Of a DNA stretch of 64,000 bases, positions 51,961 to 57,930 are shown one piece after another. Origin of the DNA: Bacillota bacterium (GTDB lineage Bacteria; Bacillota; Clostridia; Christensenellales; SZUA-584); contig JAEWTL010000118.1 in assembly GCA_023459495.1 (NCBI GenBank), forward strand, positions 45,949-109,948. Reading direction: 5' to 3'. The notes below the pieces were generated by a model that saw only the letters and a list, made by a program, of their open reading frames with translations, ran no database searches and was not told the origin of the DNA. The translations under genes were made by a program, and so were the position numbers. Every line of letters starts with the position of its first letter. Positions within the stretch are counted from its first letter, which is position 1.

Positions 51961-52240
51961 CTGCGAAAGCCTCCTCCCGGATAAATACGTGGACTGTCTG
52001 CAAACCGTGATGTATGCCGCAGGTGCCTAAAAAGCGATATCCCGTCAGGTCCGGCGCTTCATATTCGGAGCCGAGAATGATCACGGTGTATGGCTCGGTT
52101 GCCGCCCGGTCCGAGTCGATGAGGGCGAACAACACGATGCCTTCGTGCTGCTCCATTACGCTTAGTACCTTGGCATTCTCCGGCAGCTTCACGGTCTGGG
52201 CTGCGGTAATCTGCATTGCGTACTTTTTGACCGTCATCAT
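51947..52240 (-). CDS. Hypothetical phage protein
   Basis: 97-aa ORF overlapping the MuB-like stop by 4 nt. Confidence 0.5.
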   Translation of the reverse strand: MMTVKKYAMQITAAQTVKLPENAKVLSVMEQHEGIVLFALIDSDRAATEPYTVIILGSEYEAPDLTGYRFLGTCGIHHGLQTVHVFIREEAFADGTT

Positions 52241-53178
52241 ACCGCCACCGCCAGCTTCATCTCCATATGCTTCGCCATGCCCACAAGGCCATCATAGCTG
52301 GTGTTCTCATTGTCCATCGCATTAACATAGAGGTTCATGGCACCGCGCAGAGCCTGGGCGCTGCGCGCGATCCCCAGCAGCAGATCGATTGCCTTTTCAT
52401 CTTCCAACGCCGGAAACAGCAGCTGGATGTCCTCGCGCTTGATCTGCATATAGGTGTAGACCTTGCGCTGCCGGGTGCGGTTATTGATCTGCGCGAATTC
52501 AGCGCGCTTCTTACCGCCTGCATTGTTTACCGTGTCGCTGTTTCCGATCAGCGCGATCCCCAGCGTTTGGCCGAGCTCGTCAAAGTAGTCCGACAGCGCG
52601 CGCAGCGCTTCCAGCGTCTTGATGGGCAGATGTTGGGCCTCGTCGACGATGATCACCATTCCATCCCGGAGCTTGGCGGCAAGCCCGAGCCACATCTCGT
52701 CGTTGGTACGTTCTGTGACATTGAGCTTCGCGCAAAGCACTTTCAAAAGAGCTTTAACGGTCGTTATGCAGGGGTTTAATGCCACGTATACGGCATCGTT
52801 CGGGTGGTCGCGGAAGAACTTCTTGGCGGCCATAGTCTTTCCAATCCCCGCATCACCGCATGCGATGGCCAGCCCGCCCTTCAGCTGGCAGTTTCGAATC
52901 ACCTCATAGACCTTGGTGGATATCGATGTACCCACGTACCCGCTGCTGGTAAGCTCGTACCCAGGCGATGCGGCGGCAGCTTCCTTGGTTTCGAAATAGC
53001 TGATCAGCTTTGCGAATTTCGCATCCTCATCCCCTTTGTATACGCCGCGGCGCAATGGGGACATGGTCGACGATGGTATTCCTACGATTGCGCAGGCCTT
53101 GTTTTGGCTCCCAACGGTCTTTTCCAGCTCCGCGAACTTCGTCAGGGCCCATTGCTTTTGCATGCTTGTTAACTCCAT
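52237..53178 (-). CDS. MuB-like AAA+ transposition ATPase
   Basis: N-terminal HTH-like region, Walker A GDAGIGKT and Walker B MVIIVDEAQ. Start trimmed to ATG 53178 (GGAGGAGG RBS). Confidence 0.8.
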   Translation of the reverse strand: MELTSMQKQWALTKFAELEKTVGSQNKACAIVGIPSSTMSPLRRGVYKGDEDAKFAKLISYFETKEAAAASPGYELTSSGYVGTSISTKVYEVIRNCQLKGGLAIACGDAGIGKTMAAKKFFRDHPNDAVYVALNPCITTVKALLKVLCAKLNVTERTNDEMWLGLAAKLRDGMVIIVDEAQHLPIKTLEALRALSDYFDELGQTLGIALIGNSDTVNNAGGKKRAEFAQINNRTRQRKVYTYMQIKREDIQLLFPALEDEKAIDLLLGIARSAQALRGAMNLYVNAMDNENTSYDGLVGMAKHMEMKLAVAV

Positions 53179-55162: not shown

Positions 55163-55168
55163 GTCATA

Positions 55169-55229
55169 CCTGCCTCATCAGTACCGGGAGGTTATCCCCG
55201 GCAGACCGCCCGCAGGCGGTTTCGGCTTA
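55169..55229 (-). ncRNA. Type-II hammerhead ribozyme motif, copy 1
   Basis: Minus strand: UAA-GCC-GAAA-CCGCC-UGCG-GGCGG-UC|UGCCGGGG-AUAACC-UCCCGGUA-CUGAUGA-GGCAGG. CUGAUGA, GAAA, the A15.1-U16.1 pair and the GUC cleavage triplet are all present. Predicted cleavage is between 55204 and 55203. In cis, stem II is only GGC/GCC, possibly plus UAU/AUA. Confidence 0.7.
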
Positions 55230-55412
55230 TTCTTCGATTCTCCCATCCACCGTATAGCGGTGCGGGTCAGATACAGTCAAATGCTCGCCGCATACTAAAC
55301 AATCAAAGTCCCGTGTCTTAAATCCTTGATTGTGAGCTGGGAATATGACCTCTACGCGATTTTTAGCTCCACATTTCGGACATGTTGTTTCGATCTTGCC
55401 TGTCATATCCAT
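55227..55412 (-). CDS. Small zinc-ribbon protein (61 aa) bracketed by the two hammerhead motifs
   Basis: CPKCG...CLVCG, with an AGGAGGG RBS. Confidence 0.6.
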   Translation of the reverse strand: MDMTGKIETTCPKCGAKNRVEVIFPAHNQGFKTRDFDCLVCGEHLTVSDPHRYTVDGRIEE

Positions 55413-55436
55413 CGAAAACCCTCCTAAACATAATTT

Positions 55437-55507
55437 GAAACCTGCCTCATCAGTGCCGGTAGGTCGTCCCCGGCAGACCGCCCGCGGGCGGTTTCGGCTA
55501 CTGTTTC
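55437..55507 (-). ncRNA. Type-II hammerhead ribozyme motif, copy 2
   Basis: Minus strand: GAAAC-AGUA-GCC-GAAA-CCGCC-CGCG-GGCGG-UC|UGCCGG-GGACGACCUA-CCGGCA-CUGAUGA-GGC-AG-GUUUC. Stem II is GGC/GCC plus GUUUC/GAAAC. Predicted cleavage is between 55476 and 55475. Confidence 0.8.
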
Positions 55508-55677: not shown

Positions 55678-55727
55678 TGCAATCTTCCTTTCTACTCTCA
55701 ACTGCGGTTCCGGCTTATCTGTTCTTG

Positions 55728-55758: not shown

Positions 55759-56028
55759 ATGCTGATTGATGGAATCGATATTATTAAAGAGGCTAACGAA
55801 TTCGCGAGCATCATGCTGAGAGAAGCTATAAAAGATAAGCCGCTTTCAATTGACCTCTACAAGCTTTTAAAATCTCCTGCCGTTTTAAGCTCTGAATATG
55901 GTAAGCGTATAGTAGACAACATTGTCCTTGGTGCTATAGCGGCCTACCATGCCCAGTTGAGAGAAAAACTACTCGAATTAGGCATTGATATCGGGGAGAT
56001 GACTTTTAATGGGTCACCCGCAGAATAG
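55759..56028 (+). CDS. Hypothetical AT-rich plus-strand ORF in the early region
   Basis: 89 aa. No competing minus-strand ORF across 55678-56005. Composition is clearly more AT-rich than its neighbours. Confidence 0.45.
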   Translation: MLIDGIDIIKEANEFASIMLREAIKDKPLSIDLYKLLKSPAVLSSEYGKRIVDNIVLGAIAAYHAQLREKLLELGIDIGEMTFNGSPAE

Positions 56029-57203: not shown

Positions 57204-57300
57204 TTGATATTATATATCTACCACATTGATAATTCAATATATATATCAATATTTTATCAAAATTATATTAATCTTATTGATATTATCATTTATATTGATA
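57204..57300. promoter_or_regulatory. Operator/divergent promoter region with six TTGATA/TATCAA repeats
   Basis: TTGATA at 57204, 57226, 57277 and 57295. TATCAA at 57244 and 57255. The candidate repressor promoter is TTGATA (57277-82) - 16 nt - TGaTATATT (57296-57304). Confidence 0.55.
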
Positions 57301-57336: not shown

Positions 57337-57930
57337 ATGAGTAAATTAAAAGAACTTCGTAAACAAAAAAGGCTCACCCAAAGCGAAGTGGCTAGTTATC
57401 TGGGTATATCTCAAAACACATACTCTTACTGGGAGAATGATAAGGTGAAAATAGACAATCAGTCTTTAATAAGATTGTCTAAATTATATAATACATCCGT
57501 TGACTATATTCTTGGTAATAATTCAAAAACTCCCAAAGGTATACAAATACCCGTCTTGGGTAGAATCCAAGCCGGTATACCCATAGAGGCTATACAAGAA
57601 ATACTTGATTATGAAGAGATACCACTCGATTTAGCAAAACAAGGAGATTTTTTAGCGCTACAAATTAAAGGGAATAGTATGGAGCCGAAATTTTCTGAAG
57701 GTGATACGGTTATAGTAAGAAAGCAAGATGATATCGAGAACGGTGAGGTAGGCGTAGTTATAATCAACGGATCTGACGCTACAATAAAGCGTGTTTTTAA
57801 ACATAATGATGGCCTGTCATTGGTGGCTACTAATACTGCCTATTCACCAATGTTTTTTACAAAAGATGAAATTTTATCTCTACCTGTTTCTATCATTGGT
57901 AAAGTCGTAGAATTAAGAGCAAAATTTTAA
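57337..57930 (+). CDS. Phage repressor, XRE HTH plus S24 (LexA/cI-type) autopeptidase domain
   Basis: HTH RLTQSEVASYLGISQNTYSYWEN. S24 catalytic pattern GNSMEP ... ATIKRV. Confidence 0.9.
   Translation: MSKLKELRKQKRLTQSEVASYLGISQNTYSYWENDKVKIDNQSLIRLSKLYNTSVDYILGNNSKTPKGIQIPVLGRIQAGIPIEAIQEILDYEEIPLDLAKQGDFLALQIKGNSMEPKFSEGDTVIVRKQDDIENGEVGVVIINGSDATIKRVFKHNDGLSLVATNTAYSPMFFTKDEILSLPVSIIGKVVELRAKF

Follow-up and report, generated by a model that had tools for sequence, protein, structure and literature searches.

The locus examined here raises the question of why a self-cleaving RNA should lie directly in front of a transposase gene, and whether the same nucleotides can serve both the ribozyme and the ribosome. 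The locus lies in a 64,000-nucleotide (nt) stretch of contig JAEWTL010000118.1 from a Bacillota bacterium (the window), in which the minus strand of a Mu-like prophage carries a 61-amino acid (aa) open reading frame (ORF) followed by a MuA-like transposase gene. A preliminary description of this DNA had placed a hammerhead ribozyme between the two genes (copy 1), compared it with another hammerhead with the same core (copy 2), and proposed that the 3' strand of copy 1 doubled as the Shine-Dalgarno (SD) region of the transposase gene. As described below, copy 1 is a type II hammerhead, and its 3' tail appears to be the transposase SD.

The entire window was scanned with Rfam (cmscan, curated gathering thresholds). 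The scan returned a full-length match (model positions 1 to 66) to RF02276 Hammerhead_II at positions 55227 to 55164 of the minus strand, with a score of 51.8 bits against a gathering score of 37 and an E value of 9.4e-8. This match, together with the complete core and the fold described next, confirmed that copy 1 is a hammerhead, far beyond chance. Copy 2 was the only other Hammerhead_II match, also on the minus strand, and no other Rfam family reached its threshold in the 64-kb window. Read on the minus strand from 55229 to 55160, the junction is UAA-GCC-GAAA-CCGCC-UGCG-GGCGG-UC↓UGCCGGGG-AUAACC-UCCCGGUA-CUGAUGA-GGC-AGGU-AUGAC-AUG (arrow, predicted cut), and the space between the stop codon and the next start codon is exactly filled by the hammerhead. 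The abutment of the UAA of the 61-aa ORF on GCC-GAAA was as the preliminary description had reported.

The catalytic core was complete, with C3-A9 (CUGAUGA, 55181-55175), G12-A14 (in GAAA, 55223-55220), the A15.1-U16.1 pair (A55220-U55205), and C17 (C55204; position 17 is H, not G). The minimum free energy (MFE) fold of a 111-nt transcript was a three-way junction with capped stems I and III and an open stem II. In type II hammerheads, the usual tertiary contact is a pseudoknot between loop I and the 3' tail, which is essential for fast cleavage (PMC3088659); in copy 1, ACCU (55192-55189) and AGGU (55171-55168) can form this pseudoknot with 4 bp. Judged from its sequence, copy 1 has all of the sequence and structural features of an active type II hammerhead, including every Hammerhead_II feature that could be checked. 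Self-cleavage itself is predicted, and it has been shown for relatives in the class, which cleave in vitro and in E. coli in the case of clustered prophage copies (PMC3088659) and in vivo in D. vulgaris (PMC8782182).

Copies 1 and 2 had identical cores, stem II sequences, and cleavage-site contexts, and they differed, as previously noted, in the stem III loop (UGCG versus CGCG) and in the second pair of stem I (G-U versus G-C). The preliminary description was less successful with the 3' end of the element. It had taken GGCAGG as the 3' strand of stem II, but only GGC belongs to that strand; AGGU is the 3' strand of the pseudoknot, which had been missed. Its suspicion that a weak stem II made copy 1 slow or inactive was not borne out, because a 3-bp stem II is normal: it was found in all 62 unique family members, copy 2 included. 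For pseudoknot-stabilized ribozymes of this class, cleavage rates above 1 per min have been measured with a stem II as short as 1 bp (PMC3088659). A suggested UAU/AUA extension of stem II also failed, as the corresponding alignment columns (65-95 and 66-94) were unpaired in the window clade.

Related loci were collected via transposase-guided searches, which yielded 9 loci, then 80 further viral contigs, and then 12 contigs from a protein database search. In eight of the first nine loci, down to 40% protein identity, Rfam placed the end of a Hammerhead_II just before the transposase gene. We built a covariance model from 15 ribozymes of these loci, using nested helices only (the pseudoknot was left out). 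The model scored copy 1 at 83.7 bits and produced 114 matches in 85 sources, all on the transposase strand, as well as 17 further matches in the 12 additional loci. Of about 70 related loci, nearly all had a hammerhead upstream of the homologous MuA-like transposase gene, and it was always on the strand of that gene. Bacillus phage BalMu-1, whose transposase is 37% identical, had no hammerhead, which indicated that the association is not general to all Firmicute Mu-like phages.

An alignment of 66 distinct rows was used to examine covariation, with column shuffles (n = 500) and slid partners as controls. Paired cells amounted to 93.4%, compared to 81% in column shuffles and 32 to 47% with slid partners; 15 of the 20 pairs showed double-sided changes, and none of the 500 shuffles reached any observed measure. 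Double changes were seen at 7/7 pairs in stem I, 3/4 in stem III, and 1/3 in stem II, with 93 to 99% of cells paired. The preliminary description had named stem II covariation in homologous prophages as a check on its proposal, and such covariation was present as a change from GCC/GGC to GUC/GAC. Compensatory changes in stem III were evident within the window clade (CCGCC/GGCGG, CGGGG/CCCCG, and CGCCC/GGGCG), with further support in the family alignment. A fourth helix, which was absent from the search model, also covaried (GC31/AU29, CG39/UA23, and GC47/AU5). It joins the stem I loop to the bases just after stem II and, on the evidence of the alignment, is the loop I/3' tail pseudoknot described by Perreault et al. 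in 2011 (PMC3088659). Within the window clade, stem I, loop I, the core, and the tail were almost invariant while the adjacent coding sequence diverged. The hammerhead element is under purifying selection.

Six otherwise good hammerheads carried core variants (L108:1107-1172, L114:1-47, L030:2237-2311, L035:750-824, L065:208-281, and L015:2907-2975; L numbers denote loci of the survey). The change was U4 to C (CCGAUGA) in four of them, one at a window-type junction; another had GGAA for GAAA, and the last had GUA as its cleavage triplet. About half of the family members had an additional U separating A9 from stem II. In addition, locus L007 (same contig as L047, IMGVR_UViG_3300050336_000136) contained a Twister-sister ribozyme (RF02681, 57.5 bits, L007:2885-2956) on the transposase strand about 1 kb upstream of that gene, together with two type II hammerheads; two unrelated classes of self-cleaving ribozyme therefore occur in one Mu-like early operon.

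The position of the tail relative to the transposase start points to a second role for it. All of the other operon genes had a GGAGG-type SD, whereas the transposase gene had AGGU only, 5 nt before its AUG, within the roughly 5 to 10 nt usual for an SD. An in-frame UGA (55177-55175) lies within the CUGAUGA core four codons before the ATG, so the transposase start cannot lie further upstream. The preliminary description had called GGCAGG the only SD-like sequence, 6 nt upstream of the start. AGG does end 6 nt before the ATG, but a GAGG (55177-55174), 11 nt from the ATG, had been overlooked. We rejected GAGG as the real SD; it is not conserved, since an extra U (GAUGGC) breaks it in 5 of 12 junctions like that of the window, while AGGU was invariant. 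An out-of-frame AUG (55167) with a 5-codon mini-ORF was rejected too, as it was not conserved and was absent from L010, L002, and others.

We surveyed 62 non-redundant transposase junctions. In five (six with the window), the hammerhead tail lay 9 to 10 nt before the start with no other SD. In 17, the hammerhead lay 18 to 63 nt upstream and was followed by a separate SD-like sequence, mostly of the GGAGG type, as in GGC-AGACCG-GAAAGGAGGAGCU-AUG and AAAGGCAGGUGA. Hammerheads thus ended 9 to 63 nt before the start in 22 of the 62 junctions. The nearest hammerhead was 95 to 930 nt upstream in 33 junctions, two had no hammerhead within 3 kb, and five had too little upstream sequence to judge. At junctions that lacked an abutting hammerhead, Rfam found only Hammerhead_II further upstream and no other ribozyme class. 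A pattern search of metagenome contigs for window-type junctions gave eight chance matches with no hammerhead, and when viral contigs were searched with this pattern, the matches were loci of the existing set and one that was apparently due to chance. Tight packing against the upstream gene was typical of the family: for 33 hammerheads, a long ORF ended close by, and in 17 of them its stop codon overlapped or abutted stem II (UAG-CC-GAAA or UAA-GCC-GAAA).

With extra contigs included, the fused class comprised 12 distinct sequences with transposase identities of 59 to 85% (the window, L002, L010-L012, L014, L103-L106, L108, and L109). In each, GGC-AGGU(GA) lay 9 to 13 nt before the start, the tail ended 3 to 9 nt before the start, and there was no other SD; the tail was AGGUG in 10 of the 12 and AGGUGA in 7, and this consensus AGGUGA was located 3 to 8 nt before the start. 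Most distant relatives had a separate GGAGG. The six other hammerheads in the same 12 phages served as controls, and all six were followed by a separate GGAGG-type SD, which indicated that the SD fusion is specific to the transposase junction. Assuming the canonical 16S 3' tail, which may not be that of the host, the calculated energy of tail/anti-SD pairing was -9.5 kcal/mol for the window and -9.5 to -15.5 for the fused class, which falls inside the -8.4 to -18.9 span of ordinary SDs in these phages. Hence, the earlier proposal that the 3' end of the ribozyme overlaps the sole plausible ribosome binding site (RBS) of the transposase gene agreed with the 12 fused junctions and the six controls. 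Comparative evidence, as distinct from functional evidence, supports the AGGU tail, which appears to be the transposase SD.

The four bases required for the pseudoknot are also those required by the anti-SD. Ribozyme folding could therefore preclude translation initiation and vice versa, and it is plausible that 30S binding and the active ribozyme fold exclude each other at AGGU. With AGGU assigned to the pseudoknot, the proposed competition of the ribosome with folding gains in concreteness. However, cleavage would not in itself set the SD free, because the 3' product keeps both strands of the pseudoknot.

Some junctions in the survey had other features. In L019, L021, L029, L033, and L034, 95 nt separated the hammerhead from the transposase start (e.g., L019:2907-2991). 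In this interval, the hammerhead tail (GGCAGGUCAUG) and a second tail-like copy (GCAGGUCGGAAAGGAGG) flanked an insert of about 90 nt that contained two hairpins, and the sister locus L030 was without it; the pattern suggests the insertion of a structured segment that duplicated the tail. In L053, L055, L057, L063, L064, and similar loci, the nearest hammerhead was about 275 nt upstream, and a conserved non-coding element preceded the transposase SD (e.g., L064:2900-3000). This element, which lies within the ~100 nt before the start, consists of an 8-bp inverted repeat (CTCTGATA...TATCAGAG) and then AAAACA...GTTTTGTCAAG; no known Rfam family was found there, and it could be a promoter, an operator, or an undescribed RNA motif. 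L002 (JBLNCA010000022.1), whose transposase is 76% identical, has a window-type junction and is labeled as a Burkholderiales metagenome-assembled genome (MAG). The other named relatives are Clostridia, Oscillospiraceae, or Ruminococcus MAGs, and the L002 contig is probably mis-binned. In L109 (1501-3558), the gene as annotated in the database (685 aa) begins before the hammerhead and runs across its whole length; a TTG 11 nt after stem II is most likely the true start, and the case shows how ORF over-extension hides such ribozymes.

Type II hammerheads and their pseudoknot were described in 2011, as were their occurrence in prophages and their tendency to cluster around small genes (PMC3088659). 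Copy 1 shares with RF02276 as reported there the core, the permutation (stems I and III capped, a very short stem II open), a pseudoknot that begins one A after stem II, and a prophage setting with clustered copies flanking small genes. The window clade differs in having AGGU(GA) in place of the Rfam consensus tail GCCA, with the loop swapped to match, and in having this tail at SD distance from the next start with no separate SD. PMC3088659 mentions the proximity of prophage copies to 'integrase' genes and contains nothing on transposases or their starts, ribosomes, or translation. Hammerheads of the pseudoknot type are fast; the form in PDB 8YDC was more than 10-fold faster than extended hammerheads (PMC11300833). 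As in copy 1, its pseudoknot provides tertiary stabilization in place of loop-loop contacts, but it is engineered, with a 6-bp pseudoknot that replaces helix II, whereas copy 1 keeps a 3-bp helix II and has a 4-bp pseudoknot.

Some synthetic and natural systems resemble the arrangement at the transposase start. In the engineered SD-sequestering switches described in PMC5052635 (the Wieland and Hartig hammerhead and twister designs), a ribozyme in a bacterial 5' leader likewise holds the SD within its structure, but the anti-SD strand leaves with the other fragment, whereas both pseudoknot strands of copy 1 would stay on the mRNA. Those switches are synthetic, and copy 1 is natural. RiboJ-type ribozyme insulators, in which cleavage defines a context-independent leader, are also similar to copy 1. 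The glmS ribozyme, like copy 1, is self-cleaving and located in a Firmicute mRNA leader, with a 5'-OH on the coding fragment that controls mRNA fate (PMC6765202); it differs in its unrelated fold, its dependence on a metabolite, and its RNase J1-accessible 5' end, whereas the predicted 5' end in copy 1 would be enclosed in a hairpin, and there is no sign of a ligand. The hepatitis delta virus (HDV)-like ribozymes of the R2 and L1Tc retrotransposons lie directly upstream of a mobile-element enzyme ORF, which they release from a co-transcript, and are likewise linked to translation initiation (PMC6765202), but these are eukaryotic, belong to another ribozyme class, and use a mechanism like that of an internal ribosome entry site, compared to an SD in the copy 1 lineage. 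Neither a natural overlap of a hammerhead with an SD nor a hammerhead upstream of a Mu transposase was found in the literature searched, which left out most subscription journals.

Taken together, we think it probable that copy 1 is an active, pseudoknot-stabilized type II hammerhead in an early polycistronic transcript and that it releases a transposase mRNA with a hairpin-capped leader. In this model, we infer cleavage in vivo, effects on mRNA stability, the use of AGGU as an SD, and competition with the ribosome. The ribozyme would fold as the RNA is made, with stem II (GCC/GGC), hairpins I and III, and the contact between loop I ACCU and tail AGGU, and would cut between C55204 and U55203. 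Hammerhead cleavage leaves 2',3'-cyclic phosphate and 5'-OH ends, and such ends are ligatable. The upstream RNA would end 23 nt past the UAA, in the stem III hairpin with its 2',3'-cyclic phosphate, which would leave enough room for normal termination. The transposase-ATPase mRNA would begin with a 5'-OH flush with the 8-bp GC-rich stem I hairpin and have a fixed 41-nt leader, and cleavage at both hammerheads would free a 272-nt monocistronic RNA (55475-55204) with the 61-aa ORF. The ribozyme would thus act as intergenic punctuation and as an insulator, so that the transposase message would be stabilized and translated independently of the genes upstream. In the window lineage, where the 3' pseudoknot strand AGGU(GA) would be the transposase SD, the tertiary fold and the 30S subunit would compete for the same bases. 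The likeliest consequence would be ordering and damping, with folding and cutting first and translation afterward at a modest level. A role in processing would fit the idea that polycistronic phage transcripts are processed in this way, which was raised but left unproven in PMC3088659 and PMC6765202.

Several points weigh against this explanation. Cleavage of copy 1 and its effects on expression are predictions from sequence. The pseudoknot in the window is only 4 bp, and shortening from 6 to 4 bp cost one construct about 20-fold in rate (PMC3088659). The window tail, AGGUAU, is a weaker SD than the AGGUGA of the clade, and of the 10 SDs in the operon, only one pairs more weakly than its -9.5 kcal/mol. 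Nor is the fused arrangement obligatory: in L107 (74% identity), the hammerhead lies about 200 nt upstream and has an SD of its own, in L113 (61% identity) there is no hammerhead within 1.5 kb, and BalMu-1 has none. The 12 fused junctions probably share one ancestor and, thus, are not independent evidence. Finally, in Bacillus, RNase J1 attacks the 5'-OH ends made by the glmS ribozyme, so cleavage could destabilize the message instead.

A more specific form of the proposal is that a lineage of Mu-like phages of gut Clostridia has fused ribozyme and RBS such that folding and cleavage license, or time and limit, transposase translation. We regard this form as tentative, a possibility to be kept in view. 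A switch in the strict sense, which would sharpen the earlier proposal, seems unlikely. Here the uncleaved fold would hide the SD in the pseudoknot; once the RNA had been cut and the 5' fragment lost, the junction would collapse, AGGU would become free, and translation would be licensed. The same four bases do serve the pseudoknot and the anti-SD, the fusion is confined to the transposase junction, and in synthetic SD-sequestering constructs based on hammerhead or twister ribozymes, expression is 5- to 100-fold higher when the ribozyme is active (PMC5052635). However, cleavage would leave the two pseudoknot strands unseparated on the 3' product, and pseudoknots of this kind do not need the remainder of the ribozyme in order to form, as in-line probing has shown (PMC3088659). 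With only 4 bp, the pseudoknot is also weak and may be no barrier to the 30S subunit either way, and a separate SD suffices in relatives.

Cleavage might instead keep transposase levels low, either because the 5'-OH product decays faster, as the glmS product does through RNase J1, or because read-through transcripts in the lysogen are inactivated, as a safety device against untimely transposition. This would account for a hammerhead that lies specifically before the transposase across a large clade and for the weak SD of the window copy, and it has a precedent in glmS (PMC6765202). We consider it improbable, because hammerheads in these operons also precede many unrelated small genes, so the function would not be specific to the transposase. 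Moreover, the new 5' end would be fully paired in the 8-bp GC-rich hairpin, and a paired 5' end blocks 5'-end-dependent decay in Firmicutes.

Another explanation is that the hammerhead is a neutral or selfish passenger, or a decaying relic. Hammerheads would then spread through early regions of phages that gain nothing from them, copy 1 may be inactive, and the AGG-ATG spacing would be a by-product of compaction. The genes flanked by hammerheads are not constant (PMC3088659 and the extra loci here), some close relatives (L107 and L113) lack the junction hammerhead, and core variants such as U4C occur (L108 and L114). Set against this, compensatory changes have preserved the strand, the core, and every helix across divergence that reaches about 40% protein identity, and in the window clade stem I, core, and tail are nearly invariant beside diverging coding sequence. 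No degenerate hammerhead copies were detected in the window, and we judge a passenger or relic to be very improbable. Splicing out or circularization of the 272-nt segment with the 61-aa ORF through cleavage and ligation (the reverse reaction or RtcB) can be set aside almost entirely; the shared core, stem II, and cleavage-site context would make the ends compatible, but Perreault et al. found no spliced or circular products from such clusters (PMC3088659), and the two halves would be joined by no more than a 3-bp stem II.

The ribozyme itself is ordinary, in that both its class and its prophage setting are already known. Two modest details are apparently new: the fused pseudoknot/SD in the 12-member lineage, which appears to be undescribed, and the finding that hammerheads are strongly associated with the genes of Mu-type transposases in phages of gut Clostridia, which appears to be unreported. 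The role of the hundreds of bacterial prophage hammerheads has been open since 2011, and a 2019 review still stated that 'additional work is needed' (PMC6765202). The locus and its relatives offer a well-defined test case, because the ribozyme is conserved before one identifiable gene, that of a Mu-type transposase. They also offer a natural contrast between a sub-lineage with the RBS built into the tertiary contact of the ribozyme and sister lineages with separate elements; the effect of cleavage on downstream gene expression is therefore directly testable with a few mutants. If the coupling is true, it would give a bacterial hammerhead a concrete biological function and would be a natural precedent for synthetic ribozyme-RBS devices, the counterpart of SD-sequestering switches and RiboJ-type insulators. 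If it is not real, the element would be ordinary punctuation of a prophage transcript.

The features of the locus are collected in Table 1.

Table 1. Features of the hammerhead-transposase junction and its surroundings in the window
Feature	Positions	Strand	Basis or remark
Type II hammerhead copy 1	55164..55227	-	Rfam model boundaries; functional core and pseudoknot, 55226-55168
UAA stop of upstream 61-aa ORF	55227..55229	-	Last A is model position 1; adjoins stem II 5' strand
Stem II 5' strand GCC	55224..55226	-	MFE fold and family covariation (columns 3-88: CG48, UA6, UG7)
Core G12 A13 A14 and A15.1 (GAAA)	55220..55223	-	No variation in two family alignments
Stem III hairpin ACCGCC-UGCG-GGCGGU, closing pair A15.1-U16.1	55205..55220	-	Fold and compensatory changes
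Predicted cut between C17 (55204) and U1.1 (55203)	55203..55204	-	Rfam alignment to the hammerhead consensus GUC↓N
Stem I hairpin UGCCGGG(G)-AUAACC(U)-CCCGGUA	55182..55203	-	Fold; 7/7 pairs covary in family
Pseudoknot loop I strand ACCU	55189..55192	-	Helix 4, columns 67-70 with 90-93
Core C3-A9 CUGAUGA	55175..55181	-	Sequence and Rfam alignment
Stem II 3' strand GGC	55172..55174	-	Sequence, covariation, MFE fold
Pseudoknot 3' strand AGGU, only conserved SD-like element for transposase	55168..55171	-	5 nt before AUG
MuA-like transposase gene, 655 aa	53195..55162	-	Start ATG 55162-55160; N-terminus M-D/E-L-L-T-V-K conserved
MuB-like AAA+ ATPase gene	52237..53178	-	Pfam AAA_22/TniB-like; downstream of transposase
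61-aa zinc-ribbon-like ORF between the two hammerheads	55227..55412	-	Own SD AGGAGGG
Type II hammerhead copy 2	55436..55499	-	Rfam 43.6 bits; 5-bp pseudoknot GACCU/AGGUU; followed by separate SD for 61-aa ORF
cro/ner-like helix-turn-helix gene (HTH_3)	57171-56968	-	Pfam
S24 repressor gene, divergent from cro/ner-like gene	57337-57930	+	Pfam
Best candidate early promoter TTGAAT-17-TATAAT	57209..57237	-	Consensus match only; upstream of cro/ner-like gene

The gene downstream of copy 1 was MuA-like, as the preliminary description had held. Its product contains the Pfam domains Mu-transpos_C (E = 5e-11), rve, and HTH_Tnp_Mu_2, and tblastn showed homology both to the BalMu-1 transposase (37% identity) and to Mu A (22%). 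On the minus strand, the order is the cro-like gene, small ORFs, hammerhead 2, the 61-aa ORF, hammerhead 1, transposase A, and ATPase B. This is the arrangement of a Mu-like early operon, in which a MuA-type DDE transposase and then a MuB-type AAA+ ATPase are located downstream of divergent repressor and cro/ner-like genes. Promoter-like sites clustered only in the repressor/cro intergenic region (57.2-57.36 kb). Between the cro-region promoters and the transposase gene, there were no terminator-like sites (0 found versus 2.0 expected) and no convincing promoter site, and a separate promoter for the transposase was rejected. These results place the ribozymes inside a Mu-style early polycistronic operon.

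Three minor observations concern the same region. The sequence AAGCCGGAACCGCA at 55703-55716 (minus strand), about 200 nt upstream of copy 2, resembled hammerhead 5' ends with two mismatches. A third, degenerate hammerhead at 55716-55703 was rejected, since 0.52 chance matches are expected at two or fewer mismatches and the covariance model found nothing there. When the MuB-like ATPase gene is read as its longest ORF, from 53220, it overlaps the end of the transposase gene; the ATG at 53178, with a strong GGAGGAGG SD, is the likelier start. Finally, an 89-aa ORF (55759-56028, plus strand) with a plausible protein composition lies in an AT-richer stretch between a 173-aa ORF and a 59-aa ORF, and it may be an inserted moron-like gene, antisense to the early transcript.

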